Below, in pieces: positions 1 to 41,326 of a DNA stretch of 64,000 nucleotides. The notes under the pieces were generated by a model that saw nothing but the letters and a program-made list of their open reading frames with translations, had not been told where the DNA came from and searched no databases. Each line of letters starts with the position of its first letter. The first letter of the stretch is position 1. The position numbers and the translations under genes were made by a program. The stretch is from an uncultured bacterium (GTDB taxonomy: Bacteria; Omnitrophota; Omnitrophia; Omnitrophales; Abzuiibacteriaceae): the NCBI GenBank assembly GCA_964387845.1, contig CAYLXA010000006.1:96001-160000 (forward strand), written 5' to 3'.

Positions 1-3000
1 GCCGAAGAAGCGATTGAGCTTGTGTCGGCGGCACAAAAGAAAAGTGCTGTCGAGCAGCCGGTCTTGCTTTCGGATCTACCGCCCTTGTCCTATAGCCAAT
101 ACCGCTCAGAACAAACCCCGGGCGAACAGCTTTCCGGAATTGATCAATTCGTTTCAAAAGATATTGCGGAACAAATGAGAAAGGATGCCAGCATTTTCTC
201 ACCGCTTGCCGGCGCACCAGTCGGAACGCCGACGTATGGATTTAGGGACCAAAAGGGCGGGGATATTTTTGAAACTGAAAATCTGAGCGCGCTTGAGCTT
301 AAGAATCTTGAGAATGAAAGCGAATTTCAATCTGCGGATTTCGCGACTTCCATTCATGTTTTTCTCAAAGCGCGCGATTTGATTAACCGAGGGGCTGCCG
401 AACGCCGGCTCGAGCTTTTCCTCGAAGCGCTTCGAAAAGTCGAGCTCAGTCCGGACGGCTTGCTGTATGACCGTTACGATATCAAGCGACATTCTAAAAT
501 AGGCGAGAAGACCAACCTTCAAACATCTAAAGCTATCTACGAATTGGCGGTTCAAATCCAGAGCGAGTACGAACAAATCGCAAAAGGCCGTAGCAAGATT
601 GATATTCGCCTGATCAAAGAAAAGAATCTGATCCGGCTGGCAGGTTTGGTCAAAGAAAAATTTACGCGCGCACAAAACATCCGCTTACCTGAAATTCCGC
701 AGCCCGAATTGCCGAAGCGGTTGTTTGTCGAAAAAGATGCCGAACCGCTTCAAATCGAAGAATCCGTCGCAGCATCCAAGCCTTTGCTTGCGCCTGAAGT
801 GGTGCGCGTACCTCAAACCGCAGCGGTGAGCGGTGAGCGTGCGGTTGTTTCGAGCGTTGAAGAAATTGAGTTGGTGGCAGTGTCAACCCGGCCGCTTGTC
901 GAAGAAAAAGTTTTGGAGCCGGCCGTTGAAAAGCAAGAGCCGGCGGTTGCGCTTGTTGAATCAATTCCGGCGCCGGAGCAGGAAAAAGTTGAACCAAAAC
1001 CGGCGGTCATATCAGTCCAATACGAAATGCCGGGAAAAGGCGGTGATGTTAAAGTCGCTTATCCGGAATTTGAGCCCGGCCAAGTTCAAGTCATGTTCCA
1101 AACGGAAGTATCCGTTCCGGAAAAACCGGCTCCGGTTCCTGCTTCTGCTCCGCCTAGCACGACTCAAGCCAATCAGCCGGCAAGCCTTCAGGCAATTGAA
1201 GAAAAAACAGTTCAAGCCGTTCCGGCCGCAGCGCCGAGTTTGGTTTCGGCGAATAAGCCCGTTTCAATTGATGAAAGAGAGCCGGTTGAAATGGAAATCA
1301 AAATTGCCCAACAGCCTGAGAAGGTTGAAGAAGTTGAAAAGGCGGAACCAAAGGTGCCCGCCCAAAAGTTGCGCATTCAGCTTCCGGATTTCAAGCGATG
1401 GATAAAATCCGCCAAAATTGCGGCTGCAGGACTCGTGGCACTTTCCGGCGCCTGGGTCAATGAAGTTTCGGCAAAATTTCAAGCAATTCCTCCCGCTACT
1501 GTTCAAAAGGCACCAGAAGTAAAAGAAGCCAAAGAAGAAATCGTAAAAGAAGAAATTGCACTCACTCCGCCCGTCAAAATTGAAGCACCAAGCCAGGAAA
1601 AATGGACGGATCTTGAGCATCAAAAGACGGCCGATGTAGTCATGGCGGCTTTGCGCAGCGCGCCGCAGGATTTGCGCGAGAAAGTTTTGGAACTTATCCG
1701 GTCAAAAGCCGGCGCTCCGGATTACATCCGAGAATTTGATGATTTGGTTCCGGTTCCTGAAGACATTCGCTCGCGCGCCAAAATAGAAACTGTCTCTCCG
1801 GGGCAGGAAATTAAATATTTCGGTGAAAAAGAATTTTGGGACGCCATGCAGGCAATTTATCCGCCGGATAAGGATCGTCCGCATTTTACTCCGTCTTATA
1901 TCCGCGACAATAAAGTTGCGATGACGCATGAAGAATTATTGAACCGAAAAGACCTTGAAATTTACGTGAATGGCCGATCGCTCGGCCAAAAATCAGCCGA
2001 TCATTTACGCCAATCTAAAGAACTCGAAAAATTACCCATTTTCTTTATCCGTGTCGGCGCCGGTTTTGTCGGCTTTGATTATACGGGTGCGACGATTTCA
2101 ATCGGTTTGCGCGGCCAATATTCATTGGGCCATGATTTAGCCGAGTGGCGGCAGGTGCTTAATGTGATGTCGGAAGAACATAAAGTAGCGGCAGATATTC
2201 TGAAACGTTACGTTGCGTTCAGGGCCGTTGGATATCAATACGCACAAGCGCAAGAAAAAGTGAGTAATGCGGATGCGGAAATCAAACGCATGAACGAACA
2301 GCTTGCGAAGGGAATCTATCAAGTCGCAACTCATCAGGACGAATACGCGATCGGAAAAGCCATCAGCATCATTCAGCATGAAATTAAAACTCAGCAACAA
2401 TGGCGTTACAACCAGTACGACACGAGCCGTGTTTTAGGCGAAATCATGAAGCTTGACTCGCGTCAAGTGCATGTTGAATTAAATTCCGATTATGTGCGCC
2501 AAATCCGAAAAGAGTTTGCGGATGCGCCCAATTCTCTGAAATCGTTGGATCCCTATAAGCAGCAGGAAATTTATTTGAAGACAGCGATGGAAATTTTGAG
2601 TGACCGGATTGAATTGGCCCAGAGGCACCTGTCCAGCATCAGCTACGAACTTCGTTTCGATATCTTTTTGGCCAATAAGGCTTCGGACCTTTTGGCTCTG
2701 ATCGGCGGCTTTGGCGTCAGGAAAGGCAACGACCGGACACTTGGGCAAAAATACATTGACATCGCCAAAAAACAGATCGACCGCTACAAACAGTACGGCG
2801 ATGAGCGTTACAAGGTTGAAAAACTGGTTCGTGATTATCAAAAATTGAAAGAAAGATACGACACGACCTATACGGAATCCGTGAAGGCAGCGCAAAAACA
2901 TTATGAATTGGCCAAAAAGTTGGATGCGCTCGAAGTCATTCCGATTAACGAACTAGAACAGGCTTGGAAGGCCTATGAAAGTCAACTCAAGGAGAAAGAT

Positions 3001-6000
3001 GCGCTGTATGTACAACTTCAACGCATTGTTGCTGAGATGGAAGGGCTCCGCACTGCCCAGCTTTCAGCAGAATCGATTGAGAATCCGTCGCCAACCATGC
3101 GCGAACTTCAAAAGCTTGAGCAGCGCCTCAAAGATACGGATCAAATTGATTCGTTGGTTCAAATCAGGGAAGCCGAAGGTGTCACCGGCAATGAGCTTCA
3201 GTTTTATAAACGCATCCAGCAAAATCCGGACAAGGAAAGATCGGATATTCAAGCGGAGCGGGTTGAATTGGTAAGACAGCTGCGCGAAGATGCGAGCCGC
3301 ATTAGAGCGATTCAGGATAAAAGCGGGCTCAATATTGATTATCTCTATCCTCTGGATTCTCGAAAAGGTGAATGGATGTGGAAAACCGGCCGGGCAATCA
3401 AGGGGTTGGACGGTAAATATTACACAATCCCAATGCTAATTCCCATTAAGGCCGAATACCAGAGTTATGCGGAAAGTTTGATGGAACGCGGCCTCGCAAA
3501 ACAAAATTTCCTGGGTAACTTTCAATCATCATTTTCGGACCGCCATATTGAAGACCAAGCTCACGAGTTAATGAACCGGTATCTCGAAATCAGGCCGAAA
3601 GACGGACAAAAGCCTGCTTGGAGCCGCGAGGAACGAACACAGAAGATAAAAGAATTTAATGAAATGGCAGAGAGTTATTTAAAACGCCTCGAGGAACTTG
3701 TTCCGGCCTACGCTGCGCTTGATTATGCAGGAAGGCCGAAAAGTTATGGCGAGCGGCTCATGTCCGATGAGGAGTGGCAAAATTTTCACAGCGAATACAA
3801 AAAATTCGAGCGCAGTTATTATGCTGCGCAAGAAATGGTTGCGGAATTAAGCCAGGAAATTTTGCCGGCGACAGGCGATGCCGTCAATCCGCAGATTGAT
3901 GTCTTAAAAGCGCAAAAGTTAGCGGCTGAAACGGCCAAAAAATCAATCGATCTCAACATGTTTGATGAAGCGACAAACATCGCCGATGCTTCTGATTTGA
4001 CAATCCCTGAGCATATCATCGGGCCCGCGACTGTAAGGGCACAAACCACCGATGTGCCGGTCCGGGCTTGGCAAGAAGGCTTATTGTCGGCGGCAATGCC
4101 GATGATCCGAAAGCAGTCCAACGTTCTTTTTGACCTCAATATCCAGGGCTACAACTTCGAATTAGAAAGACTCTTCAAAAAAGATTTTGAAACCAAGGAA
4201 CTCCAGGCAATTCCCGTAATCGGCTGGTTTGTTCCGGGCAGCGATTCTGAAATTACGGAAATGAGAGCGCAGGTGTTGGTTATCCGCCAGAAAGTCATGA
4301 AGCCGGATGACAGCGGTTCGGGCGGCGGCCTTGGCGGTGGCATGGGTGGTGGCGGGCAATTACAGCTTCCGGGCAAATTGGGCAAACTCCAACAAATGAT
4401 GGGACAGATGCAGCAATTGATGGGTTCGTTTCAGGGCCTTGGAAACGGCGCGCAAACATTTCTCGGTGCGGCTGGTCAACGGTTTCCGATGGTAGCCCGT
4501 GCACAGGGCTTGCTGCAAGGAATCAATGCTCAGCAGCAAATCTTTAATCAATTTACAGGCGGCCAGAATTCTTCCCTCCTGCCGTTTGTCACAGGTCAAA
4601 TGAATCAGCTTAATCAAACCGGCCGGATTCCGTCTGTCGGTCTCGCGTCTTCCGGAGCGACAGGGCCGCACGGAGCACTGCAAACATCGACACCGGGCCG
4701 AGTCAGCGGCGAAGCTTATTCGGCGGATGCGTTTAATCAGGGACTTGATTCACTCAGGCAGGGCGGTGATTTAGCGAAGGAAGTGACGGGTAAGCTGCAA
4801 GGTCAAGGCGGTGAGCAGGGTGGTATGACAGAAGAGATCGAATATGAAATTGCCGGCGTGTTTACGGTCCAATTCAAATTAACGGGCAGCAATGAAGAAA
4901 AACAGAATCAGCTGCGCACTCTTATTGCACTTAATGAACAAAATAAAGTGCTTTACGAAACTGACCAGCAGAAGAAACTCCTCGAAATCGCAATTGATTA
5001 TGAGGGTAAGGTCCAGTTGCTCAGGGCAAGAAAGCTTCACCGCGAATTTGTCAATACCACACGGCGAGCTATCCTCGATAAATTCACCGAGTGGCGTGTA
5101 ACGCCGGCGAAACAGGTCGAATTTGAAGCAGATTTAGCCGTCATCGACAAGAACATTGACGACCTAGAAAAAGAAATCGCCGAGACGCCCAATAAAATCA
5201 GGGAAGCGCTGAAGGTTACACCGGAAGCTGCCAACGGCCTGCTGCACATGATGAAATCTGAAATCGAAAAGCACGGCATTGTCGATATTCGCGAACTGAA
5301 CGGCATTGAGAATTTACGCCGCCAAATTGTTGAGAACCCATATGCCGACCGGGCCGCAGGGTACCGTGTGCTTGCTGCTCAGCTGGAAGAATCGCGCGCA
5401 AAGTTATTTGAGAAAATCAAGAACGCTTATCAGGTTGAGCTGAGCGTCAGCACAAAGCTGGAATTCAATGTGGTGCTTCAGGAATTGGGTTACGCGATCC
5501 GCAATGCAGTCGCGGGTGAACAGCGCGGTACGATTAATGATTTTCTGGGTCAGATTCAAACGGGCCTGAATCCGCAGGAAATGCAAGGCCAAAGAGACCG
5601 GTTAGAGGCGTTGACGACCGCGATCCGGAAAAGCGGTCTCAAGCGCGAAGTGATGGATGCTTTATTTGAAGTTGCGATCGTCGAACGTGTCATGCAGGAA
5701 CGGGTCCGTCAAAATGAGAAAAATCGAATGGAGCAGCTCATTCGTTTAGAGGAAGCGAAGCTGCGTCTTCGGCGCGAAGAAATCCAGCTTGCAAAAATCC
5801 ATGAACAGAAAAGAATCACGCCCGCGGACAATTGGATCAAGCAAGTCCTTCTGTCCGCGGAGATCTATATTCAGGAGCTTTTGCTTATGGGTGCGCGGGA
5901 TGATCTGGCGAAAGCGATAATGCAGTCGCTTTCTGCGATCGCGATGAGCGAGGAAGAAATCCGGTCTTTGCAGGTTTTAACCAACGCAGAGCAGAGAATT

Positions 6001-18000: not shown

Positions 18001-21000
18001 GAAGGCGTGCAAAATGTTCAACTCGAAGTTGCTAACTTTATTTCTCAAATTTCAAACCGCAAGATTTCAGGATTTGCCGATGAAGTGATGAGAGAAAAAG
18101 ATCCGGTCAAAATATTCGACATGTTCTTCAATCTGGATGCTTTTAAAATATGGAAATTTAGGATCGGCGGCAGTCTTTTCAGGTGGATTCATCAAGTAAA
18201 AATGAAGCGAGAAGCTTGGCGGATGAGTCAGCGTCCAGACGATTATATGTCGGTTGCACAACATCAGAACGAGATGTTTATTGCCTTAAAGGCGCTTTTT
18301 GAAGGCCGTACAGATTTTCTGAATCAAAAGACTTTTGATAAACAGGCTTTAGATTCCGCGCTCTTGAAGCGGCTACAAGAAAGCGTGGACAGTTTGAGCG
18401 AGAGAGAAAAAACATTGCTTGCCTTGACGGTTGTGCTCAAAGATTTTGGTAAAATCGCGACTGCAGGCCCCCTGGACCCTGTTGCAGGTTCGAATATCGT
18501 AGAAAAATTGCTGACAAAGCTCCAATTTGATCCGAAAGATGTCCACTTTATCAAGCAGCTTATTCTCAGAAACCGCGAGCTTGGGTCATTGCATTGGGGT
18601 GAAAAAGACCCGCTCAAGATTTTATCCGGTTTGGAAGTTGAAAAAACAGAGCTATTTCTAAAACTGCTGACCATTATTTATGTGGTGGATGTTTCGGCGG
18701 TAGGCACGGGAAAGCTAACCTCCACACATTTAAGTAATGCATTATTTATGCAGGATCAAAGCAACCTTTATTCCTTTGCTTTGACCTGGCCCGAGTTTCG
18801 CGCGGCAAGTTTTTATAGTAAAGCCGCAGGGCAGGTATTGGATTTAAACCAGCCGCAGTTTACCAATCATATAGATCCGGTTTTGTTGCAGGAAATCAAA
18901 GAGAGCGGCGGAAATTATGATTTCCGGGAATTTATGTATAACGTTACATTTCAAAGAGCGATCAATATTTTCCGCTATTTTGTCCGGAACGGACACCCCG
19001 AAAATGTCACCAAACTTTTATATATCTTTTTCAGGCTGTATCAAATTACCGGTATGAAATACATCGGAATTTTGGATGACAGCGAGCCGGTAGCCGAAGC
19101 TTTGGATAAAAAACTGTCCTCGATTTCATGGGAGGAGCTCCGGTTTGCTCGTGTTGAAGCCCCGTCTGTTGAAGTGAAATTGCAGAAAGAAACGGAGTGG
19201 GATACGACGCGGGATACTGTCTATGCTATCGAAAAGAGCACGGTGGTGGTAAGAAAGAAAACAAATTTAGATACCGTAGAAACCGTTCTGAGCCTGCCTT
19301 TTCAATATACGGATGACCACCAGCAAGTTCTTATTAACGCAGATCCGGACCCGTCCCCCCGCTCAGAGCTTCGCCAAATTAAAATCGGTGATTTGACATG
19401 GCTTTCTTCTATCAGTGAGTTTCAGAAACTCAAGGCTACAAACCCAGCTCGCGCAGCTCATATGGCAGAAGTGGTTCGATATTTTAAAGCATTTTCCGAA
19501 GGTGATTTTGCCTATTTTGCGGAAAGGCTGCAAGATCGTGCTGCAACTCAGCCGGACAAAATTGCAAGGTTTGAAACAAAGATGAGTGATCTCAAGAAGA
19601 AATTCGATAGTTTGAACGATGACCAGCGTTTGGCGCTGTGGCTTGCGGTCAATCTACACGATATCGGCTATTTAACCGGCGGAAGCAAAGACGAGAGCAC
19701 GCGAGGTTCCGTCTTGGCTGAAGAAATTTTGACACGGGAAGGCGTAAAGGAATCTGTAGTTGACCTTGCAAGCCGGATCGTGCTCGCGCATGAACTGTTG
19801 GGCAATGTGGTGGTCGGAGAGCGCGCACCGCAATCGGCCTGGCCCAGCATCGCGCCGTTATTTGATTTTCTGCAAATCCACACGGTGGTTGATGTGGCTG
19901 GTTATGGGTTGATGACTACTTATGTGTTGGATTGGTTTTTGGAAGTCAAAGACAAGTTAGAGCAGATTGCACAGACTTTTGATCAATATAGGTTGGAACG
20001 TTTGGTCAAGCCGGCTCCTAATGCTGATGCTATTAGTGCAGATGCTCTGGAGCATTTAAACGATGCTATCCGAAAAATTTTTGGAGATGAAGAAGAGATT
20101 TTGCGTTCTGTGCTGCGAAGCCGAGTTGAATTTTTAAGCCGCTCCAGCACCATTGCCCGCAAATTGGCTGCAATAGATCCTTCATATGAAGGTTATGCCA
20201 AATTTATGCGCATGGCCGGGCATCTCGCTCTCTTGGCGGGTGAGGACGCCAGCATTTCTGTTTTCAGCGATTTAGATCGGTTTGATGGCCGGCCCACTTC
20301 TAAAAAGGATATGGATCAGGCGTTGGAAGCTATCGCTCAGCGCATATTAGAATTGCCAAACACGATCAGTATTACGGATGCACGGTATCATTTGGAAGAG
20401 TCGGGTTGGAGGAGTTATTTTGAAGTTCCAATTATGCGTAAAGAGAATCAGATTACAATTTCAACGGTCAAATCGCACAAACCTCTTCTTGTATCGGAGA
20501 GCGATCTTTCAAATATCAGCGCGAATCAACTTCCGGTTCGCGATGCATGGGGAGTTGAAGCGAGAATTTTTAAAGACGAGTCTGGTGAGCATGGCGAAAA
20601 GGGAAAGTGGTATTTAAAAGTTGAAAACCTTTCTGATCGAGAACAATATCCTTGGGTTAAGTTTCCGTTTGAAATTTTTAAAGAGTTATACACGCCATTT
20701 TTTATAAAGGATGTTTCAAAAAGCCAAGCGCGATCCGGCTACGATATTTTATTTAATGCTAAAGGCCAGAATGGCAAGCCGGGAAATATCAATCCCGAAA
20801 CGGGTGAAATAGTCTTTCATTTAAGATCGTATCAACACCACCTGTTTGATCTCAGCACGATCAGCGTCATTGAAGATCGAGAGGTGCAAGATCAGGAAGG
20901 TGCGGTGAGTATTCATCGCATTATCCCGTCACAATTTTTTGAGCTTGGGCGTTCAGAGCTTCGGATTGCGGAAAATCGGGCGAGTGCTGCACCGGCCGGA

Positions 21001-21606
21001 TTGGTGGACGCGGTTTCATCCGCTCAACAAATGAAAAATGTCCAACGCTTGACAGCGCTTGAAGCTTCTCTGGGCGGGTATGATGCTGCGAATCGCGCGG
21101 TTGGGAATTTCTTAGCGCTTAACCTTGGTGAATTAGTTCCGAGCGTGCAAGGGTCAACGCGTGTTGTGATTGATTTGACCAGTTTCGATAATCTTGCTTC
21201 CGTCAGCGACTTGTTTAACAGTCAATCCATCGTGACTGTGCGCGCGGCAAATGAAGCGCAAAAGGCAAAATTAATAGCAGAGCAGGTTGAGCTGGGTATT
21301 TCCACTAAAGAATTGCGTATCATAACAGGTGATTTGGAAACAATTGTCCGCGGCGAGTGGGAAAAGCTGGGCACTGACTCACCTGATGCGCTCAGGCAAA
21401 TCATACCGCTTACCGGAACGGAGCGTTATCATGGGGCGATTGCCAGGGCGACGATTTTACAAGCTGTGCCTGGTGTTAACATCTTATCAACACAAGAGTT
21501 ACCGATGGTCAAAGACAGTGCTAAACACAGGATTTCGGTGGAAGACCTTGTGTTTGCAATGCAAGTAGCGGAAGAGGCAGAGAGACTGATCGGCCGTTTC
21601 GCGTAA
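1..21606 (+). CDS. giant multidomain protein (5' partial, at least 7201 aa within the window); membrane-anchored, with HD-domain modules; family unknown
   Basis: Frame 1 is open from nt 1, so the start lies upstream; the ORF track gives a GTG at nt 22. There is no in-frame stop until the TAA at 21604-21606. The reading frame is consistent and carries recognisable protein-like segments (hydrophobic helices, an HD motif, coiled coils). All ORFs in other frames and on the other strand within it are short. Confidence 0.9.
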   Translation, partial: AEEAIELVSAAQKKSAVEQPVLLSDLPPLSYSQYRSEQTPGEQLSGIDQFVSKDIAEQMRKDASIFSPLAGAPVGTPTYGFRDQKGGDIFETENLSALELKNLENESEFQSADFATSIHVFLKARDLINRGAAERRLELFLEALRKVELSPDGLLYDRYDIKRHSKIGEKTNLQTSKAIYELAVQIQSEYEQIAKGRSKIDIRLIKEKNLIRLAGLVKEKFTRAQNIRLPEIPQPELPKRLFVEKDAEPLQIEESVAASKPLLAPEVVRVPQTAAVSGERAVVSSVEEIELVAVSTRPLVEEKVLEPAVEKQEPAVALVESIPAPEQEKVEPKPAVISVQYEMPGKGGDVKVAYPEFEPGQVQVMFQTEVSVPEKPAPVPASAPPSTTQANQPASLQAIEEKTVQAVPAAAPSLVSANKPVSIDEREPVEMEIKIAQQPEKVEEVEKAEPKVPAQKLRIQLPDFKRWIKSAKIAAAGLVALSGAWVNEVSAKFQAIPPATVQKAPEVKEAKEEIVKEEIALTPPVKIEAPSQEKWTDLEHQKTADVVMAALRSAPQDLREKVLELIRSKAGAPDYIREFDDLVPVPEDIRSRAKIETVSPGQEIKYFGEKEFWDAMQAIYPPDKDRPHFTPSYIRDNKVAMTHEELLNRKDLEIYVNGRSLGQKSADHLRQSKELEKLPIFFIRVGAGFVGFDYTGATISIGLRGQYSLGHDLAEWRQVLNVMSEEHKVAADILKRYVAFRAVGYQYAQAQEKVSNADAEIKRMNEQLAKGIYQVATHQDEYAIGKAISIIQHEIKTQQQWRYNQYDTSRVLGEIMKLDSRQVHVELNSDYVRQIRKEFADAPNSLKSLDPYKQQEIYLKTAMEILSDRIELAQRHLSSISYELRFDIFLANKASDLLALIGGFGVRKGNDRTLGQKYIDIAKKQIDRYKQYGDERYKVEKLVRDYQKLKERYDTTYTESVKAAQKHYELAKKLDALEVIPINELEQAWKAYESQLKEKDALYVQLQRIVAEMEGLRTAQLSAESIENPSPTMRELQKLEQRLKDTDQIDSLVQIREAEGVTGNELQFYKRIQQNPDKERSDIQAERVELVRQLREDASRIRAIQDKSGLNIDYLYPLDSRKGEWMWKTGRAIKGLDGKYYTIPMLIPIKAEYQSYAESLMERGLAKQNFLGNFQSSFSDRHIEDQAHELMNRYLEIRPKDGQKPAWSREERTQKIKEFNEMAESYLKRLEELVPAYAALDYAGRPKSYGERLMSDEEWQNFHSEYKKFERSYYAAQEMVAELSQEILPATGDAVNPQIDVLKAQKLAAETAKKSIDLNMFDEATNIADASDLTIPEHIIGPATVRAQTTDVPVRAWQEGLLSAAMPMIRKQSNVLFDLNIQGYNFELERLFKKDFETKELQAIPVIGWFVPGSDSEITEMRAQVLVIRQKVMKPDDSGSGGGLGGGMGGGGQLQLPGKLGKLQQMMGQMQQLMGSFQGLGNGAQTFLGAAGQRFPMVARAQGLLQGINAQQQIFNQFTGGQNSSLLPFVTGQMNQLNQTGRIPSVGLASSGATGPHGALQTSTPGRVSGEAYSADAFNQGLDSLRQGGDLAKEVTGKLQGQGGEQGGMTEEIEYEIAGVFTVQFKLTGSNEEKQNQLRTLIALNEQNKVLYETDQQKKLLEIAIDYEGKVQLLRARKLHREFVNTTRRAILDKFTEWRVTPAKQVEFEADLAVIDKNIDDLEKEIAETPNKIREALKVTPEAANGLLHMMKSEIEKHGIVDIRELNGIENLRRQIVENPYADRAAGYRVLAAQLEESRAKLFEKIKNAYQVELSVSTKLEFNVVLQELGYAIRNAVAGEQRGTINDFLGQIQTGLNPQEMQGQRDRLEALTTAIRKSGLKREVMDALFEVAIVERVMQERVRQNEKNRMEQLIRLEEAKLRLRREEIQLAKIHEQKRITPADNWIKQVLLSAEIYIQELLLMGARDDLAKAIMQSLSAIAMSEEEIRSLQVLTNAEQRIHESNRRIGLLQAQAVESDVSTREEFFELQRELKWLYERRDQYSLPSTPDGSLNELDQKIAENHKAIQALVADALLRNPKIKEKVTKEEVIRDELLISKKNIEEEKQAVISRHDQEVKVILDPMIQLHQERAQLGIDAANRLDVERAKKGEDPVLVELSDARLAQSVSEVEGIDRNAVLDVMSKVMNVIGDIEVAQTMLREWDGKALPRYLDRLLRNLYFLAGTNQLDDVLRGTAQGSFKMGIGGSLISDEDLRNLIRAEASRWAIRVKEVVRDKIIRDEQAKIYSEYLQYVSLIEELYIDLKNIRALEKAIKAYEARAKRQYDTERLNDATGPYEKLEQAKVRLYVSLKRIKVQRAQLEFLTQEYLPHNVSVFKSVKASGKSVEENLEIEFRTSAAHEQGVDLEALGAMLSGEVAAENPFPAGSDKAVFWNKFYRSNIRGDEFIREVRKLRMSPEDVSKLKKENGLEQWIWGSSDNQFQVAKAMNENLNADAIGFFLFPFGSFKFDINAFLGGSWDFKNKPEFLNIINASAEVEFDWGAKWQAFQSAVQKSLNEAFKLDEISNDAVRRRHQMLMEYAFMQIMYEASQEILKTAIENESTWYKALMRGKIDWDKYYTSNTHGLARIWDLERTLKEEWVALHAASRNIQNSLEESGIQSTSVLIQSFPLPLPPEIEHKLVSEAEIQLQEHAAQQEKAALEKAAQDAAARTKFFSEFKDLFSRLKSLTENMLVNLENVMNKLGDLQDQYKPTQHHGELSPEAKAILPDTNEFLRVLKVKTQSGVDSVDLETFAERMATFGRERHMSSEDLQNLIRSAIEIAKKLEAAPGEAPNELQTKWAAMSAPGTKADGSAFLMSERWPPFLEIPLRHLFTQEEIIRSRGSIADKNLNLYQIGAILLSAMREQAAKELDYRFENNLDELVNGVEAYKQIRAGSGDASAVQRYLSWYRKWVIPVGSAESLFSTGVLLYRPWVKFQRAGDQEINIDDIRQHWSFVSTSFVKHIQKSEKFQAIAQYLGLDPVEFFDSQKDQGRLYAIISELLNTGIIKTLPTTEAELEALNAEIDHFFGELMPLIEERKYFYLTVGALPNYSDLTQMQHYTALDGRLTGTGGAELPFAKFQEDAARMEDGIGKLQKLLPSDIIFYQQVKEAKNVLDVIKNASDYSQISDLEGLMDHLREIVDYARETYASLLLGDAYYHYGFFRENKAVLVQLNLIDKKDLNSKGALKPDSLRPVTQKYNQLLLHSKDYIEHFYLGKPIDFSSMDQIGVWNALAQTKAAGLDDTVFSAYLNWASRIAGIREKSALSDANRELAAQLWKIIPGLQDKISEQKYAEALASGLAVHILLNPELTEADLIQLIQNIKAMLQNPELVESVIRESQSELEIIYGELRSIDLTRQKDFGIFFNAFAEAHELGFSQFLVRHQRTMNLIQEHQRIREQEKGTGSRAETALSRAILIGSQIERVKNGDGAVQIDEISFFQNQKARNSVMWVLSGMADEGVDPFVLKSEAILDFLREFYSDQPVRYDHLGRVSVDAESKTAVELAAELAREREVVFQGQDALTISAEGIKQSRVIWNRVMAELGGMADEGLQTWIQKHRGSDKQIGVFPMLSNREQLNKLFPSIEAFYQSIFGAANTPEINPETFKANKRVQMLVTAWLGSAAEEGLAEWNAKSDVIARILSNPEERKQVIEATREYAHALEKILKIDYPEISEQSLVDDRRARALVLAWTGAQQEDGKVKWARKNSDIITFSERVNAQADFAEGLDNVTRHYYEAKYGEAVGRSWTPSQRGQQVGLIFMLARQYVENPNLTDGRLIEYVNAMADLAPVFIGRDASSRSFDQSRIHQTYLRLIGETKSRHDQQHEMGWVDAELAYMAELIGWDGVNWKKRDRWRSLSSSEKIEHRYRVLEKATDPVIQQEARDLMALVSSKSSDQWDLRAHPSDLGFLVTWADMKMEAGEATDLFGQYRHVIDSSAFSRYLKEFDIAQEFRKELASTFSEVVKKANGEDADRNQIERFYELMGRVSSFAKFTSLQFDQKIKVNLEVIDALKRYYGQSASDSSQAMIDGVIDLLSVLKIEPVELAGMQAENYYQLREMMYLMAKISEYRRNREMANDGPVPQAYVEDMKREYRSVFVESMLPGFAQKIVPAKHGKLENWIGDFESIIRELADYPIELESSDAISQYNFARFLKNLEEEGIVLDDASVKIYERVFKQYQLMGLASWWLDQKLPEAEEQFTLSEIKERIQRKKLVWALNEKYWNSESLHMPVTADEISFLADLELYEDEYEHFFRMSALFQNWASAHLGRHLFFDEIIYFYFAPGKYFGDLVMPFRGGLSRLLTWGQDPDLLSRFRAKHLFENVLTGPEQALYQVAMNRENEERRFILWHGQKQLLRVIGLGPDYEDYWYDILHEKQTLGEYASEKYLKELLVMGRVLSEGVRWLALGNHFSYDDNMLTDEFKRNQYIILRLLTRREYRILTSDEEKMSIKKLIEYTRDQTKNKKVEIENPSEWVESLKELARAHNRVIETEQELKEIIKSILWDAETIIDEADREYDVKLDQDSVLKVIMEQRINGELHQITKAEEMITKHFANSVIGRNSIELSNEENQMPVSVLIEKWLNDYELQNTPIAGLKDRWILAANDRSLDYVSIKTIFSDLKTMQDAWRNAPLFRPMDLIESLKLVNKVRRFGLDNIGIVEPEILTPVQRTEKYKKNKKLFLGMIGSDLIADSTQQIAILFNQQTKNWSIQKTIDDLEKDKSIETKQESFRLIHGAAVVLVLSLILVTIRAHYLKWRQMQSAKKAGLPTPQTPYRQGLFKKVSESVKGFSPLTWVNIIYFASVLLIAGSMSWAYFVAHAWAISHSTFSTLMVIMFSYLSLTNAHILVDRLITLPKFRDRLFRKQPVDDVKTPNFKDAFRAGNFPPGHQAVVAIITQAKGNTFGKLDQRTGELKGQVIENLMVSLKNNPGVPGVIIQAGQDLDDVETNRQIRMIEALEKALGTRVYYFRRNNLFSAGDINLEKKFGAFQEYMRFVGDGAMFAENETDQYPGRHFGLDVTKNVSWVAGWTVLAATLFNALIPGLLLNPLGLVVGILGISLGVGYLWTLWKYGQAKRISIKTIVGKNELSALTRSTLPYYDVIYGDLGAIGFVDMESGQSLQGSRTWRADEAYWQKIKLDTEHPNKIWLSFILDDKNKVGMNSTNEDTEGLTEADRWLRDRMKVENPLERREQNAYYEAVRKAAETMYRESWAAMGQPVYEIGNPNASMFSEMLSIAARVGEFYAGAQKIFGRGRANFTGKGPVVVDRWLHGTRERHQKIMWGFGLGSIGGVLVGALISSLLFGVGNIGFGMLIGYFLGGAILGNFEMRYGTAYGVIYYGELSHDYAEGGSVGAAYLSNVGITEDATTDLAKENERGPTRWFQGVIPYWRHQFGPGYTLIDRWMMFLAEKMYLNDTLFLFWLIGGFVGITFSGLADTFYPVARLQEYSEPLYAMGLYILNMLVIIGFANFVGAFWKSADNAGVATSKERFQAIARSTMIYLNKPFITTAYAIPNLFRVLVGGEHPRARDWAPEHKLRALVFGSLIGAINLLLLANLFVGWVSISWMVPAAVFVASFYAIHRLAGRYIPVARIFAELLYLTLKFSLFAIPIVVLSAYSYINEPLVAFLEKFSFISFISAPIQALLIQIFGTIILEAKALKWIRELEEILKEPLPWRGFTLVAGSKGPLKMYESAVMVKWSLITTVAVILSHVVITSNFWVISGWGIPLFVSWSIGWFYVWYTSKMMPDFVRETKTDKSGEVIKDAQGKAKLFPRLWKSIPKLAIAELVKTSKNKEDKEIIRIGDVQIKMEDIRWRTVPTILFLYTKEALSLSSMKQNLNPSVLWKKIKSAPARADHWANGLFMLGVVFGTFLFLGVVIGTPLYLWFGTGHLFLPTASFWSKVGIVWQYYIGAVVAALVLPGVFGHLFALTVFPLVWINRQLVLIKTFFTKVVDTKGPNFKKGHDDKGSPESIQEGVQNVQLEVANFISQISNRKISGFADEVMREKDPVKIFDMFFNLDAFKIWKFRIGGSLFRWIHQVKMKREAWRMSQRPDDYMSVAQHQNEMFIALKALFEGRTDFLNQKTFDKQALDSALLKRLQESVDSLSEREKTLLALTVVLKDFGKIATAGPLDPVAGSNIVEKLLTKLQFDPKDVHFIKQLILRNRELGSLHWGEKDPLKILSGLEVEKTELFLKLLTIIYVVDVSAVGTGKLTSTHLSNALFMQDQSNLYSFALTWPEFRAASFYSKAAGQVLDLNQPQFTNHIDPVLLQEIKESGGNYDFREFMYNVTFQRAINIFRYFVRNGHPENVTKLLYIFFRLYQITGMKYIGILDDSEPVAEALDKKLSSISWEELRFARVEAPSVEVKLQKETEWDTTRDTVYAIEKSTVVVRKKTNLDTVETVLSLPFQYTDDHQQVLINADPDPSPRSELRQIKIGDLTWLSSISEFQKLKATNPARAAHMAEVVRYFKAFSEGDFAYFAERLQDRAATQPDKIARFETKMSDLKKKFDSLNDDQRLALWLAVNLHDIGYLTGGSKDESTRGSVLAEEILTREGVKESVVDLASRIVLAHELLGNVVVGERAPQSAWPSIAPLFDFLQIHTVVDVAGYGLMTTYVLDWFLEVKDKLEQIAQTFDQYRLERLVKPAPNADAISADALEHLNDAIRKIFGDEEEILRSVLRSRVEFLSRSSTIARKLAAIDPSYEGYAKFMRMAGHLALLAGEDASISVFSDLDRFDGRPTSKKDMDQALEAIAQRILELPNTISITDARYHLEESGWRSYFEVPIMRKENQITISTVKSHKPLLVSESDLSNISANQLPVRDAWGVEARIFKDESGEHGEKGKWYLKVENLSDREQYPWVKFPFEIFKELYTPFFIKDVSKSQARSGYDILFNAKGQNGKPGNINPETGEIVFHLRSYQHHLFDLSTISVIEDREVQDQEGAVSIHRIIPSQFFELGRSELRIAENRASAAPAGLVDAVSSAQQMKNVQRLTALEASLGGYDAANRAVGNFLALNLGELVPSVQGSTRVVIDLTSFDNLASVSDLFNSQSIVTVRAANEAQKAKLIAEQVELGISTKELRIITGDLETIVRGEWEKLGTDSPDALRQIIPLTGTERYHGAIARATILQAVPGVNILSTQELPMVKDSAKHRISVEDLVFAMQVAEEAERLIGRFA
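690..1610 (+). other. Pro/Glu/Val/Ala/Lys-rich low-complexity linker region of the giant protein
   Basis: The translation is dominated by PAVEK, EPKV, PEQEK and APVPASAPP type segments. The biased codon composition creates long spurious ORFs in alternative frames and on the - strand. Confidence 0.7.
4306..4828 (+). other. Gly/Gln/Met/Asn-rich intrinsically-disordered-like segment of the giant protein
   Basis: Translation: DDSGSGGGLGGGMGGGGQLQLPGKLGKLQQMMGQMQQLMGSFQGLGNG...GQGGEQGG. Strongly low complexity, prion-like or FG-like in composition. Confidence 0.7.
10436..11330 (+). repeat. four (possibly five) tandem protein-level repeats of about 75-80 aa inside the giant protein
   Basis: Recurring motif basic-x-V-x-W/M-x-L/V-x-A/G-x-L/G-G-x-A-[DE]-E-G-x-x-x-W-x-x-K-x-S/D-D. 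The copies read NSVMWVLSGMADEGVDPFV, SRVIWNRVMAELGGMADEGLQTWIQKHRGSDK, KRVQMLVTAWLGSAAEEGLAEWNAKSD and ARALVLAWTGAQQEDGKVKWARKNSD, spaced about 230-250 nt apart. Confidence 0.6.
14281..17930 (+). other. polytopic integral-membrane domain embedded in the giant protein (about 12 or more hydrophobic helices with large intervening loops)
   Basis: The translation contains many hydrophobic stretches of 20-25 aa. Examples are AAVVLVLSLILVTI, VNIIYFASVLLIAGSMSWAYFVAHAW, LGLVVGILGISLGVGYLWTLW, GGVLVGALISSLLFGVGNIGFGMLIGYFLGGAILG, LVFGSLIGAINLLLLANLFVGWVSISW and LFMLGVVFGTFLFLGVVIGTPLYLWF. They are separated by polar loops of 50-250 aa. Confidence 0.75.
15930..16065 (+). other. glycine-zipper (GxxxGxxxG) transmembrane hairpin within the membrane domain
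   Basis: GFGLGSIGGVLVGALISSLLFGVGNIGFGMLIGYFLGGAILG has Gly every 4th position over two predicted helices. A second helix pair at about 15181-15300 (LGLVVGILGISLGVG) shows a similar pattern. Confidence 0.5.
18390..18615 (+). other. degenerate HD-like module (KDFGK in place of HDIGK) in the giant protein
   Basis: LLALTVVLKDFGK...IVEKLLTKLQF...FIKQLILRNRELG parallels, motif for motif, the canonical module about 1.2 kb downstream (LALWLAVNLHDIGY...LAEEILTREGV...LASRIVLAHELLG). His residues are replaced by Lys and Arg. Confidence 0.45.
19610..19915 (+). other. HD-domain (HDIG-type metal-dependent phosphohydrolase) module in the giant protein
   Basis: Motif L-A-V-N-L-H-D-I-G-Y (HD codons at 19657-19662), followed by VLAHELLGN and VVDVAGYG. 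This fits the HD superfamily motif order H/HD/H/D. Confidence 0.6.
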
Positions 21607-21650: not shown

Positions 21651-22241
21651 ATGAACGATACTCCTAATAATAATCCATCACAGCCGAAAGCCTCAGACAG
21701 AAGGTCCGTCCGCAACATCATCATTCACAAGCCGATGCAGCAGCAGTTTACGCTCATCACGATTGCGATCATGATGTTCTCGGCGTGCGGTGTGAGTTTC
21801 GTTATCCATTCGACACTTCATGAAACGATCGCGGACAGTGTGGGAAGGATCGGCGGAATCGGCGCATATACGATCCTTTCGGATGTCAGTTATGATTTGA
21901 TCGTCCGCGTTGTTCTTGTTTTCTTTGCAACGATTATTGCAGTCGGGCTTTTCGGCATATTTTTCCTGCACCGGGTTGCGGGGCCGGCGTACCGGTTCCA
22001 TCAATTGTTTAAAAGCCTGAGCCGCGATCAAATTCCGTCGGATGTCACGCTGCGCGAGAAAGATTTCTTCAAGGAAATCGCGGTTGAATTGAACATGGTT
22101 TTTAAGTCGCTCCGGAAGCGCCAGCAGGCGATTGAACAGGTCGAAACCATCATCTCATCCATGTCCTCAGCGCAGCTGCCGCCCGAGACCAAGCAAAAAG
22201 TGGAACAGCTTCGTTCTATTCTCCAAGAGTTAAAGAAGTAG
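21651..22241 (+). CDS. small membrane protein with two TM helices, a HAMP-like linker and a C-terminal coiled coil; hypothetical
   Basis: 196-aa ORF 44 nt after the giant gene. Hydrophobic helices FTLITIAIMMFSACGVSFVI and LIVRVVLVFFATIIAVGLFGIFFL, then HRVAGPAYRFHQLF and a charged helical tail. The antisense ORF 21693-22031 is rejected. Confidence 0.6.
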   Translation: MNDTPNNNPSQPKASDRRSVRNIIIHKPMQQQFTLITIAIMMFSACGVSFVIHSTLHETIADSVGRIGGIGAYTILSDVSYDLIVRVVLVFFATIIAVGLFGIFFLHRVAGPAYRFHQLFKSLSRDQIPSDVTLREKDFFKEIAVELNMVFKSLRKRQQAIEQVETIISSMSSAQLPPETKQKVEQLRSILQELKK

Positions 22242-22277: not shown

Positions 22278-22305
22278 TTGACAATATATAGAAGCTGAGT
22301 ATAAT
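22278..22305 (+). promoter_or_regulatory. sigma70-type promoter: TTGACA (22278-22283), 16-nt spacer, TATAAT (22300-22305)
   Basis: Perfect consensus -35 and -10 hexamers with a 16-nt spacer, lying 77 nt upstream of the nusA ATG. Confidence 0.7.
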
Positions 22306-22310
22306 TACTT

Positions 22311-22359
22311 CACTTTTTGTGGTGACAAAAGTGGGCCCAATGCCCACTTTTTTTATTTT
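22311..22359 (+). terminator. leader attenuator: antiterminator-like hairpin CACTTTT/AAAAGTG (22311-22333) overlapping an intrinsic terminator-like hairpin (AAAA)GTGGGC-CCAAT-GCCCAC(TTTT) with a 7-T run (22327-22359)
   Basis: Two mutually exclusive inverted repeats share AAAAGTG. The second is a GC-rich 6-10 bp stem with a 5-nt loop, followed by TTTTTTTATTTT, immediately upstream of the nusA RBS. Confidence 0.55.
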
Positions 22360-22381
22360 GAAGGAGAATTTAGGTGTCAAA

Positions 22382-39687: not shown

Positions 39688-39688
39688 T

Positions 39689-40195
39689 ATGAGAAAAACA
39701 TCTCGGAAAACAGTTCGGAAATCAAGCCAGCAGCTTCTATGGGCGCCTTGGCGAGCGCCTTACATTCAGCATATTGCCCAACCCAAAGGCTGTGTTTTTT
39801 GCAGGGCGATCAGGAGTTCAAAAGATGCTGAAAATCTCGTAGTGAAGCGCAGCCGTCATTCGTTTGCAATTCTGAATTTGTATCCTTACAACAATGGCCA
39901 TCTGCTCATCGTGCCGAAACGCCATGTACCGGAATTCAGCCGGCTTACGGATCGTGAAATCCTGGATTTGATGGCCCTTCAAAATAGTATGCTGAAACGC
40001 ATCAAACAAAAACTGAAACCGGACGGATTTAATGTCGGCGCCAATCTCGGCAGAGTCGCGGGCGCCGGAATTCCGGGTCATTTGCATCTGCACATCGTTC
40101 CGCGCTGGCGCGGCGACACCAACTTCATGCCGGTTATCGGAAAGACCAAAGTCATCTCTCAATCGCTTGCGGCATTGCGCGATCTGCTACAATAG
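39689..40195 (+). CDS. HIT-family hydrolase
   Basis: Histidine triad GHLHLHIVPRW, with an upstream CVFC zinc-binding-like motif. 1-nt gap after the ATPase gene. Confidence 0.85.
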   Translation: MRKTSRKTVRKSSQQLLWAPWRAPYIQHIAQPKGCVFCRAIRSSKDAENLVVKRSRHSFAILNLYPYNNGHLLIVPKRHVPEFSRLTDREILDLMALQNSMLKRIKQKLKPDGFNVGANLGRVAGAGIPGHLHLHIVPRWRGDTNFMPVIGKTKVISQSLAALRDLLQ

Positions 40196-40198
40196 GGC

Positions 40199-41314: not shown

Positions 41315-41326
41315 CGATGTAAGTAT

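Follow-up and report, generated by a model that had tools for sequence, protein, structure and literature searches.

The 64,000-nt stretch of DNA analyzed here (the window) opens inside a reading frame so long that it raises two questions: is the frame a genuine gene, and if so, what kind of protein does it encode? A preliminary description of the sequence proposed a giant gene for a helical scaffold with an internal membrane domain and a cytosolic HD module, an architecture that it took to be undescribed. Alternatively, a frame of this size could be an artifact of assembly, or the protein could belong to a type that has already been documented. We examined the frame itself, its relatives in genome and metagenome collections, and the sequence features of each part of the product (Table 1).

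The open reading frame is a genuine gene

Frame 1 of the + strand runs from nt 1 through 7201 sense codons to a stop at 21604-21606. As the preliminary description had pointed out, the frame is uninterrupted, and because it is open at nt 1, 7201 aa is a lower bound. The second-longest open stretch in the window is 816 codons, and at the window's base composition the probability of meeting no stop over 7201 codons is about 1e-174, in agreement with the view that an ORF of 21.6 kb lies beyond chance. Codon usage in frame 1 resembled that of the 27 neighboring genes in every 1.8-kb tile (+0.12 to +0.28 log-likelihood per codon); shifted frames gave negative scores, and each of the five other frames contained 10 to 51 stops per tile. 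The GC content of the giant ORF is like that of the remaining window.

Continuity of the assembly had been named as a point to check, and an independently assembled Logan contig (SRR15237813_85822) bore it out for window positions 11651-32241, with 0 mismatches over 20,591 nt. On that contig the giant gene encodes a 6244-aa product (18.7 kb) that is cut at the contig end; the contig does not reach as far 5' as the window, and a metagenome scan with aa 1-330 as the query gave no match for an upstream extension.

We consider it practically negligible that the frame is an artifact, whether a mis-assembly, a set of genes fused through errors that hide stops, or a decaying pseudogene. The sole point in favor of such an artifact is the a priori rarity of 21.6-kb ORFs. 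Against it stand the coding signal, which is uniform over the whole frame, the same sequence in a second assembly across the 20.6 kb compared (with 18.7 kb called as a single product), and at least 10 independent relatives from other samples, which have the same collinear architecture of several thousand residues and the same C-terminal end. We are highly confident that the giant ORF is both a genuine gene and a member of a giant-protein family linked to Omnitrophota.

The gene lies in a housekeeping context. Downstream come first a 196-aa ORF and next nusA-infB-rbfA-truB-ribF-rpsO-pnp, and the earlier placement of the gene, chromosomal and co-directionally upstream of the nusA-infB operon, holds with that one ORF in between. 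Conserved synteny with nusA was rejected because the relatives have another giant gene downstream. No opgG-like partner gene adjoins the giant gene.

Relatives are rare and linked to Omnitrophota

Co-linear homologs, which had been suggested as something to look for in metagenomes, do exist. An exhaustive HMMER search with aa 4751-5950 picked out 19 of 1.84e9 representative proteins. These relatives, which mostly measure 4-8 kaa, are collinear with the giant protein over aa 3556-5985. When a conserved-core query was run against 185,579 GTDB species genomes, all three matches were Candidatus Omnitrophota metagenome-assembled genomes (MAGs), and P0009 and P0005 bear an Omnitrophota label at NCBI. 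All relatives for which a taxon is given are thus Candidatus Omnitrophota; the others are unlabeled metagenome or Logan sequences.

Complete relatives begin with a signal-peptide-like anchor and a module containing "IHIQDAH...GGFHTPG," for which a PDB profile search returned nothing, and they end in a common C-terminal domain of ~215 aa. Their predicted cytoplasmic cassettes include glycogen synthase, DUF4922, and DUF218, and in P0009 a bona fide starch/glycogen synthase (E=3e-31) is fused to the same core. Judged from sequence, this is a rare, cysteine-free, and previously undescribed family built around a synthase-like membrane core.

Table 1. Features of the giant ORF, with residue numbers counted from the first codon in the window
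Feature	Residues (aa)	Window position (nt)	Strand	Basis or remark
Giant ORF, 7201 sense codons plus stop, 5'-incomplete	1-7201	1..21606	+	Open frame, codon usage, identity with Logan contig
N-terminal region without strong hydrophobic helix	1-4761	1..14283	+	Positive-inside topology; no Pfam/NCBIfam family
Linker-like stretch rich in E/A/V/P	230-545	688..1635	+	Composition E 15, A 13, V 13, P 12 %
Gly/Gln-rich low-complexity stretch	1437-1612	4309..4836	+	G 23 %, Q 15 %
Membrane-proximal region, predicted external, conserved in all family members	3556-4761	10666..14283	+	All-alpha helical-bundle array
Polytopic membrane core, ~19 TM helices and three interleaved, predicted cytoplasmic GT-like segments	4762-5971	14284..17913	+	Hydropathy; K/R-rich loops one-sided; region recovers 19 relatives
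OpgH/Cgs-like (GT2-superfamily) GT-like domain	4905-5051, 5094-5307, 5352-5444	14713..16332	+	hhalign versus OpgH; Pfam match of a family member
D5182-D5183 in near-invariant "LDDKN," DxD position	5182-5183	15544..15549	+	Family alignment
S5371-H5372-D5373 ... E5376 ("ELSHDYAEG")	5371-5376	16111..16128	+	Aligned with LSHDFVE (OpgH) and LSHDLLE (Cgs)
E5392-D5393 ("ITED"), (T)ED catalytic-base position	5392-5393	16174..16179	+	Glu invariant in family
R5408-W5409 ("TRWFQG"), QxxRW position	5408-5409	16222..16227	+	Invariant in family
C-terminal region, predicted cytoplasmic	5972-7201	17914..21603	+	K/R-rich after last TM helix
HD-like module 1, degenerate	6058-6460	18172..19380	+	34 % identity to P0010 aa 7234-7603
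RSELR copy 1	6454-6458	19360..19374	+	
Extra cassette between RSELR copies: HD module 2, then beta-rich domain	6459-6983	19375..20949	+	Alignment
HD module 2, intact H6487 ... H6553-D6554 ... H6597 ... D6631		19438..19920	+	Pfam HD and GlnD models
RSELR copy 2, directly before C-terminal domain	6984-6988	20950..20964	+	
Family-defining C-terminal domain, ends ...GRFA (relatives ...SA)	6989-7201	20965..21603	+	Common to P0001, P0002, P0008, P0009, P0010, L005, L006, and L008

A cysteine-free protein in three predicted parts

The giant ORF contains 0 cysteine codons, versus ~63 expected. By hydropathy, hydrophobic helices occur only within aa 4762-5971, which bears out the internal polytopic membrane domain of the preliminary description, and under the positive-inside rule the long K/R-rich loops, the GT segments, and the tail all fall on one side. 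From this topology, which is a hand-made hydropathy and positive-inside analysis rather than the output of a trained predictor, we infer three parts: an external N-terminal part of at least 4761 aa, a membrane core of 19 helices, and a cytoplasmic tail of 1230 aa.

Tiling of the whole protein against Pfam and NCBIfam gave no family above threshold, and weak matches to SLATT_4, CUX1_N, and sigma-70 were dismissed as coiled-coil or chance. Ig, cadherin, and RTX families were not found by this tiling, self-BLASTP of the protein revealed no internal repeats at E<1e-3, and the Walker-A motif is absent; two earlier statements, that the protein has no adhesin-type Ig or cadherin repeats and no ATPase P-loops, are therefore correct. 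A third, that it carries no other family signature, had to be given up: the membrane block has the LDD / SHD..E / E(D) / RW set of the OpgH/Cgs type, and the family profile has Cgs as its best PDB match.

The N-terminal region (aa 1-4761) is probably located outside the cytoplasmic membrane. Its first 3555 residues showed no similarity to the relatives by BLASTP, phmmer, or hhalign, and none to a known family. A model of aa 3650-4760, the only N-terminal part modeled, was almost wholly alpha-helical and had no known-fold match, and a PDB profile search with the external region returned nothing. The giant helical scaffold of the preliminary description stands for these residues, at the scope of the part modeled.

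Motifs of the OpgH/Cgs type in the membrane core

Two TM hairpins (aa 5052-5093 and 5308-5351) interrupt the GT-like domain. Its catalytic motif set occurs in the right order (DD, SHD..E, E, RW), is invariant or nearly so across the family, and aligns with both Cgs and OpgH; beyond the RW motif come TM helices, the order seen in processive synthases. The GT-like block is also the most conserved part of the family, with 48-55 % identity in alignment A2. Searched against the PDB, the family profile had Cgs/NdvB as its top match, in three collinear pieces and at a marginal E=0.014, and hhalign aligned the family to Escherichia coli OpgH over SHD..E..RW and the next helix (P=1.3e-4, probability 54 %). 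One family member matches Pfam Glycos_transf_2 (PF00535) at E=0.0045.

Other comparisons were negative. None of the Pfam or NCBIfam glycosyltransferase models matched the giant protein itself, E. coli OpgH gave no significant BLASTP match (E ~1), and phmmer of the membrane region and tail against PDB sequences found nothing useful. The acidic pair is DD, not DxD. The invariant Glu is followed by Asp in the giant protein alone and by G, A, or P in the relatives, and the catalytic base is therefore uncertain. An AF2 model of the core, built on a shallow alignment, reached a pLDDT of 47; its one recognizable element was a beta-alpha-beta-alpha-beta pattern (model residues 130-211). With this model, Foldseek gave no significant match, and Cgs ranked 6th (E=3.7). 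The statistical support is weak but consistent, and the membrane core is probably a sugar-polymer synthase of the OpgH/Cgs type.

HD-like modules and a recurrent motif in the C-terminal tail

At the position of the tail, relatives carry nucleotide-sugar-dependent enzymes. In the giant protein we found two HD-like modules there. Module 1 has K6147-D6148 where relatives have H-D (LKDFGK versus AFHDYGR and ALHDYAK), so that the catalytic, metal-binding His is lost; the P0010 copy of this module matches Pfam HD (E=3e-4, 21.5 bits), and the copy in the giant protein does not. Module 2 scored E=0.0084-0.056 and 14-17 bits against Pfam HD (PF01966), below the 22-bit gathering cutoff, and three GlnD models matched it locally in their HD region (E=1.2e-5 to 2e-4). 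None of the aligned relatives, P0010 and L005 included, has the extra cassette that holds module 2, and Pfam shows no family in this cassette at E<=0.01. A PDB profile search with the tail found nothing, and the C-terminal domain has no Pfam or PDB match. The cytosolic HD module proposed in the preliminary description can be kept in part: the tail, cytoplasmic by the positive-inside rule, does have an HD-type module with intact H..HD..H..D residues, but its Pfam HD match is below threshold and module 1 is degenerate.

The motif R-S-E-x-R occurs in 2-11 copies per protein, versus ~0.1 expected, and is absent from 11.3 kaa of neighboring genes. Its copies differ by synonymous codons, and because of these codon differences a DNA-level repeat was rejected. 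All nine members whose C-terminus is complete have a copy 214-256 aa before their end. The motif also flanks two cassettes in relatives: GT5+GT1 in P0009, where copies come to within ~20 aa of the borders drawn by Pfam, and DUF218 in L006. Because it recurs at cassette borders, the motif may serve proteolytic processing or docking.

What the giant protein may do

In the reading that we favor, the membrane core would polymerize a nucleotide sugar, by analogy into a glucan, and the core's helices would themselves conduct the chain to the outer face, where the very large helical ectodomain would hold or organize the polymer within the cell envelope or a coat. The cytoplasmic cassettes, of the HD phosphohydrolase type here and glycogen synthase, DUF4922, or DUF218 in relatives, would regulate or feed the synthase and would be joined through R-S-E-x-R. 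We put forward this mechanistic reading as a whole, with its external helical scaffold, GT2-type synthase core, and HD tail, tentatively, as plausible though not quite probable. It is improbable, in our estimate, that the protein is an "operon in one polypeptide," that is, a new envelope glucan synthase-exporter with an external scaffold and exchangeable cassettes, in which R-S-E-x-R would mark specific cleavage sites and cysteine avoidance would be a requirement of export or processing. If that were true, the motif would be the first cleavage code to be defined for giant proteins of Omnitrophota.

Several observations could also be accommodated by a polyprotein, translated once and then cut at R-S-E-x-R, and perhaps elsewhere, into separate proteins, with the giant size serving as a device of gene organization. 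The motif is enriched 20- to 100-fold and kept at the protein level, one copy always precedes the C-terminal domain, and copies sit in linkers ~20 aa beyond Pfam borders, which would release units of 583 aa (the P0009 glycogen synthase), ~270 aa (DUF218), and 530 aa (the HD cassette here). The available text of West-Roberts et al. considers cleavage possible and states that the cleavage points of Omnitrophota giant proteins are unknown (10.1101/2023.11.21.568195). However, the giant protein has only two copies of the motif, both in the last 750 aa, and most of the protein would therefore stay one piece of ~6450 aa. The motif could equally be explained as a docking element or a recombination joint, and the sole protease candidate, the N-terminal module of the relatives, lies beyond the window and has one weak match to the Tiki/ChaN superfamily (1 of 7 members, E=0.005) and no PDB match. 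A Tiki/TraB-like protease in that module is no more than a guess. Overall, we place the polyprotein on the unlikely side.

Two further explanations give the external region the main role. In one, the protein is solely a surface coat or adhesion protein, its helical ectodomain functioning in host or prey attachment or as an envelope layer, the membrane block being a mere anchor, and the GT motifs being vestigial or otherwise used. The predicted external part makes up two thirds of the protein, the GT evidence is sub-threshold, and the zero-cysteine composition resembles that of many secreted or surface proteins. As far as the available text of two reports goes, this is also how the giant ORFs of Omnitrophota are viewed, as adhesins or coat proteins (PMC10066038; 10.1101/2023.11.21.568195). 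Yet Ig, cadherin, discoidin, dockerin, and laminin-G domains were not found with Pfam and NCBIfam, conservation peaks in the GT-like block with its invariant DD/SHD/E/RW residues and not in the ectodomain, the N-terminal 3555 aa are not conserved, and 19 helices with conserved cytoplasmic loops far exceed the needs of an anchor. We regard a coat or adhesion role alone as unlikely. The other explanation is a trans-envelope conduit, in which a TolC-like outer-membrane channel in the N-terminal region would allow one protein to span the inner membrane, periplasm, and outer membrane and to extrude the polymer. In the relative P0005, which carries the NCBI name "TolC family protein," Pfam recognizes a TolC-type OEP repeat at 28.4 bits, a score above threshold, and amphipathic hairpin-like stretches can be picked out by eye between long helical segments of the giant protein (aa 684-709, 883-906, 1614-1630, and 2490-2545). 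Against this, Pfam did not find OEP (PF02321) in the giant protein, phmmer --max and hhalign detected no similarity to the TolC-like region of P0005/P0006, so that a TolC-like N-terminal region is not supported by these comparisons, and P0005, P0006, and P0014 form a separate subgroup with cysteine and without the RSExR motif. Such a conduit is very unlikely.

Omnitrophota giant genes take up a large share of very small genomes, and the available literature describes their functions as poorly understood. The family described here is short enough for study, and its conserved core gives a testable hypothesis of an OpgH/Cgs-like polymerase. R-S-E-x-R is a simple sequence marker at cassette borders, always with one copy before the common C-terminal domain, and the processing of giant proteins is therefore directly testable. 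That >7000 residues contain no cysteine at all is a striking constraint, and it could help to explain how such long chains are exported and folded. Should the glycosyltransferase reading prove wrong, what is left is one more Omnitrophota giant ORF.

Comparison with known systems

The match of the family profile to Cgs (GT84) runs collinearly through the first part of the GT domain, the LSHD..E..ED..RW block, and the TM region behind it. Cgs is a very large multi-domain inner-membrane protein whose cytoplasmic GT is docked under TM helices, a layout also predicted for the giant protein. It differs in carrying a GH94 phosphorylase and a GH144-like cyclase C-terminal to the GT, neither of which was found in the giant protein (Pfam; PDB sequences with aa 6000-7201), and in having 6 TM helices and being otherwise entirely cytoplasmic, whereas the giant protein has ~19 TM helices, two hairpins inside the GT, and an external region predicted to be huge. 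OpgH, a membrane synthase, is believed to deliver glucan into the periplasm. OpgH/MdoH (GT2; E. coli b1049) and the giant protein have in common the string YFRR...KKxG, LD(A)D, SHD(F/Y)xE, (E)E/ED, RRW...G, followed by TM helices, although OpgH, at 847 aa, is without a giant ectodomain and an HD tail. The HD region of GlnD resembles module 2, but the nucleotidyltransferase, ACT, and other GlnD domains are absent here. Giant repeat adhesins (RTX, Ig-like, or cadherin-like, SiiE type) have tandem repeats, and neither Pfam nor self-BLASTP (E<1e-3) found any in the giant protein.

The closest precedent is the phylum itself. The available text of three reports already documents Omnitrophota ORFs of >20 kb that encode TM helices, have few annotated domains, and include sugar-metabolism enzymes and HD regulators (Seymour et al. 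2023, PMC10066038; West-Roberts et al. 2023, bioRxiv 10.1101/2023.11.21.568195; Nielsen & Lui 2026, bioRxiv 10.64898/2026.06.07.730766). The claim that the architecture is not a described one does not hold, since all labeled relatives belong to this phylum. At 21,606 nt, 5'-incomplete, the giant ORF exceeds the >20 kb that Seymour et al. 2023 used for a single ORF, and with ~19 TM helices and no Pfam/NCBIfam family above threshold it is membrane-associated and poor in domains, like the very long Omnitrophota proteins; complete relatives have the signal-peptide-plus-TM layout. Its relatives carry starch synthase (PF08323), GT1, and HD modules, all of which the available reports also give for their "multi-enzyme" class of giant proteins.

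It is, however, much shorter than the proteins of 30-147 kaa on which the accessible literature focuses. The Archaeovorin and Dockerin types of West-Roberts et al. 2023 are described there as >30,000 aa long, with SecA_DEAD, C39/S8 peptidase, and dockerin/TSP3, none of which Pfam found in the 7201 aa here; the relatives are 5-8 kaa long. Within the Omnitrophota giant-protein literature that was searched, we found no mention of an OpgH/Cgs-like core, a lack of cysteine, an RSExR border motif, or common N- and C-terminal modules. The giant gene is a new family within a known phenomenon and not an unprecedented object, and what appears to be new is the OpgH/Cgs-type motifs in its core, its rarity (19 in 1.84 billion), its zero cysteine, and the RSExR motifs that bracket its cassettes.

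The giant reading frame is genuine

The preliminary description had reported a single uninterrupted frame of 21.6 kb, still open at nt 1 of the window and too long for chance at this base composition, and both points held. The plus-strand frame that runs from nt 1 contains 7201 codons without a stop (stop codon at 21604-21606), no other open stretch in the window exceeds 816 codons, and the chance of such a stop-free run is approximately 1e-174 at the base composition of the window. Since the frame is open at nt 1, its true start must lie outside the window. Coding signal extended throughout: codon fit to 27 neighboring genes was +0.12 to +0.28 per codon in all 12 of 12 tiles of 1.8 kb, both shifted frames were negative in codon-usage score, and the other five frames contained 10 to 51 stops per tile. 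The GC content of the giant gene equals that of the rest of the window. A second assembly produced by a different pipeline (Logan contig SRR15237813_85822, run SRR15237813) was identical across window positions 11651-32241, with 0 mismatches in 20,591 nt. On that contig, the giant gene was called as a 6244-aa product truncated by the contig end. We conclude that the giant ORF is genuine and not an artifact.

The gene lies upstream of housekeeping genes

A short ORF without a Pfam match separates the giant gene from nusA (see the table); its NCBIfam match was at chance level only, and it sits where rimP is usually found. Beyond it, the order on the plus strand is nusA, infB, DUF503, rbfA, a DHH-family gene, truB, ribF, rpsO, pnp, dut, and ftsK, with a dcw-type cell wall cluster farther along on the same strand. 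This run of housekeeping genes bears out the chromosomal location that had been suggested for the giant gene. The apparent promoter and the hairpin both precede the nusA start (22382 by the Logan contig gene call), and window positions 22278-22381 resemble a promoter and a leader attenuator serving nusA-infB. Because nusA has its own promoter and leader hairpin, cotranscription with the giant gene is not implied.

All sizeable ORFs of the 64-kb window are on the plus strand, and the GC skew stays above zero in each 2-kb bin. We found no tRNA genes and no Rfam families at gathering score in the window. A run of nucleotide-signaling and nucleotide-hydrolysis genes occupies positions 38056-42994 (AAA_16 ATPase, HIT family, HD plus HD_assoc [dGTPase-like], and GAF plus HD_5 [HD-GYP-like]), placing free-standing HD proteins 17 to 21 kb downstream of the HD modules of the giant gene.

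Relatives are rare

An exhaustive HMMER search with aa 4751-5950 returned 19 matches among 1.84 billion representative proteins, most of them giants themselves (7976, 7853, 7724, 7111, 5491, 5337, 4118, and 4048 aa). By BLASTP, collinearity with these relatives covered aa 3556-5985, that is, the helical region and the membrane block, while tail positions 6058-6460 matched a single relative, P0010. The best-conserved stretch, compared with one genome per species (185,579 species), identified three loci, all in Candidatus Omnitrophota MAGs; the JGI metagenome collection added three further loci, all from one metagenome; and the relatives P0009 and P0005 are labeled Candidatus Omnitrophota at NCBI. 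From the 19 matches and the labeled loci, we infer that the family is rare and, where a taxon label is available, limited to Omnitrophota. The representative library lacks the giant protein itself, though its neighbors are present in the collection, and the word-indexed search missed known members; because known entries were missed, null results from either say little for proteins of this size.

Two relatives carry database names taken from one domain: P0009 (MBI1977655.1, 7724 aa) is named "glycogen/starch synthase, partial" after a cassette at aa 5849-6432, and P0005 (MDP2929933.1, 4048 aa) is named "TolC family protein, partial." Such single-domain names hide giant multicassette proteins.

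A probable glucan synthase-like glycosyltransferase in the membrane core

A motif string of the OpgH/MdoH glucan synthase type is visible by eye in the membrane block. BLASTP against annotated Escherichia coli OpgH aligned the SHD...RW stretch, not significantly. A profile of the family searched against the PDB gave Cgs/NdvB as its top match, at a marginal E value of 0.014, and matched it in three collinear segments, namely where the glycosyltransferase (GT) domain begins, across the block LSHD..E..ED..RW, and in the next transmembrane (TM) region. Aligned with OpgH in hhalign, the same profile matched over 124 columns spanning SHD..E..RW and the next TM helix (P=1.3e-4, probability 54 %), and one family member matched Pfam Glycos_transf_2 (E=0.0045). 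Across the family, residues D5182-D5183 (LDDKN), S5371-H-D..E5376, E5392, and R5408-W5409 show little or no variation. In the Cgs structure paper (PMC10901819), the GT84 domain is described as having a modified GT2 fold that docks beneath the TM helices and bears acidic residues for UDP binding and catalysis. An AF2 model of the membrane core built with 13 sequences reached a pLDDT of 47 and had no significant Foldseek match. Together, these similarities suggest that the membrane block is probably an OpgH/Cgs-like glycosyltransferase of the GT2 superfamily, set among TM helices. Given that no GH94 or GH144 domain was found, that it has 19 helices rather than the 6 of Cgs, and that two TM hairpins are inserted in its GT domain, the block is no orthologue of either enzyme.

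Topology and composition

Hand-made hydropathy analysis placed strong hydrophobic helices only at aa 4762-5971, where 19 could be positioned. The long K/R-rich loops of this core all fall on one side (positive-inside rule); one of them, the 37-aa loop behind the first TM helix, has 8 K/R against 1 D/E. The tail and the three soluble segments of GT type share that side, and the short loops are all opposite. Nucleotide-sugar enzymes must be cytoplasmic. Taking the GT-like segments as cytoplasmic, we predict an external location, beyond the cytoplasmic membrane, for aa 1-4761 and an internal one for aa 5972-7201. The anatomy first described (helical scaffold, membrane domain, and HD module) was broadly right.

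The giant protein contains no cysteine, versus approximately 63 expected from the 0.87 % of its neighbors. A Walker-A motif search was empty, in line with the earlier remark that it has no ATPase P-loop; self-BLASTP found no internal repeats, and no Pfam or NCBIfam family reached threshold.

Within the predicted external region, aa 3650-4760 are conserved in all relatives and were modeled with 8 sequences as almost purely helical (mean pLDDT, 72.6). Residues 1-3555, approximately 50 % A/E/L/K/Q/R/M with one E/A/V/P-rich and one G/Q-rich stretch, had no similarity to the relatives by BLASTP or phmmer --max. Directly upstream of the conserved part, four loosely alike units of approximately 85 aa (signature ...V..W.......EG...W...) can be seen by eye at aa 3470-3810 (window 10408-11430); similar ones occur in P0001, P0006, and P0014, and BLASTP did not detect them. 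An above-threshold Pfam OEP (TolC-type) repeat underlies the NCBI name of P0005; neither phmmer nor hhalign ties this region to the giant protein, where a TolC-like region was not supported.

Cassettes, border motifs, and family traits

The HD module reported earlier, which lies in the tail, stood in part. Module 2 retains an intact pattern (H6487...H6553-D6554...H6597...D6631), three GlnD models match it locally over their HD region (best E=1.2e-5), and its score against Pfam HD is 14 to 17 bits, under the cutoff. Module 1 reads LKDFGK where relatives have AFHDYGR and ALHDYAK, and because the His of the H-D pair is replaced it is, by its sequence, degenerate; in P0010, this module reaches 21.5 bits with the Pfam HD model. 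The C-terminal domain matched no Pfam family and no PDB sequence.

Features of the giant protein, its downstream region, and the loci of relatives
Feature	Position	Strand	Remarks
HD-like module 1	aa 6058-6460		Common to P0010 and locus L005 (alignment A3)
RSELR motif, copy 1	aa 6454-6458		
Extra cassette, 525 aa	aa 6459-6983		Giant protein only in alignment A3; holds HD module 2
RSELR motif, copy 2	aa 6984-6988		Followed by C-terminal domain
C-terminal domain, 213 aa	End of giant protein		Common to all members with a complete end; ends ...SA, in giant protein ...FA
196-aa ORF	Window 21651-22241	+	Between giant gene and nusA; no Pfam match
Apparent nusA promoter	Window 22278-22305		Perfect sigma-70 consensus TTGACA-16-TATAAT, 12/12
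Terminator-like hairpin	Window 22327-22351		10-bp stem and T-run; nusA leader
Next ORF after giant gene in relatives	L005 16558-20798; L006 15680-20783; L008 17433-20789		Also RSExR-bearing

The RSELR pair that flanks the HD-2 cassette belongs to a wider pattern. R-[SA]-E-x-R occurs in 2 to 11 copies per protein, versus approximately 0.1 expected, and in 0 copies in 11.3 kaa of neighboring genes; since codons differ among copies, it is kept at the protein level. The sites are linkers at cassette borders: in P0009, the motif lies 21 aa before a Glyco_transf_5 starch synthase domain (E=3e-31) and 18 aa after a GT1 domain, and in loci L006 and L008 it stands on both sides of a DUF218 cassette. 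All 9 of 9 members with complete ends carry a copy 214 to 256 aa from the C terminus. The motif is absent from the more distant P0005/6/14 subgroup, which contains 7 to 33 cysteines, versus 0 to 3 per 5 to 8 kaa in close relatives.

At their N terminus, complete members have an anchor resembling a signal peptide and then a conserved module of approximately 550 aa (IHIQDAH...GGFHTPG), which had one weak Tiki/ChaN-superfamily match and no PDB match; in our giant gene, it is expected upstream of window nt 1. Because the next ORF downstream of the giant gene in L005, L006, and L008 opens with the same anchor and module (IH(I/L)QDAHAN...), in L006 with a frame that begins at the base after the stop, these loci hold giant paralogs in tandem. 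Cysteine avoidance, the RSExR motif, and the shared N-terminal module with tandem paralogs appear to be new family traits.

Proposed mechanism and place among known giant proteins

In the best-supported reading, the giant protein may contain a membrane-embedded sugar polymerase whose product would emerge on the side of the giant helical ectodomain, with cytoplasmic cassettes that would regulate or supply it. Cassettes in relatives are sugar-handling enzymes, which fits the polysaccharide theme. The polymerase activity, substrate, topology, and processing are what we infer from sequence. The RSExR borders could reflect cleavage of the chain into separate parts by a protease, or else a shared docking or linker element. 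We identified no protease, and because the giant protein has only two RSELR copies, both near its C terminus, a piece of approximately 6450 aa would be kept in any case. Neither RSEVR nor RSELR was found together with Omnitrophota in the literature searched.

The preliminary description had considered the architecture undescribed; instead, the family falls within a known class. Poorly conserved ORFs of >20 kb that encode TM helices and few annotated domains are reported in most Omnitrophota classes (Seymour et al., PMC10066038); Archaeovorin and Dockerin types exceed 30,000 aa, with SecA_DEAD and C39/S8 domains and cleavage points that are unknown (West-Roberts et al., bioRxiv 10.1101/2023.11.21.568195); and 916 proteins of at least 10 kaa are catalogued, 39 % with a signal peptide and TM helices and 46 % with TM helices only, whose modules include signal transduction with HD-domain regulators and sugar metabolism led by starch synthase PF08323 and GT1 PF00534 (Nielsen and Lui, bioRxiv 10.64898/2026.06.07.730766). 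The passages searched contain nothing relevant on HD domain, cysteine, nusA, or glycosyltransferase (West-Roberts et al.) or on TolC, OEP, cleavage, polyprotein, or cysteine (Nielsen and Lui). The giant gene therefore represents a rare, new family among the giant proteins already known from Omnitrophota, fitting that phenomenon and none of its named types, and its value lies in a testable enzymatic core, a cassette-border motif, and a cysteine-free composition.
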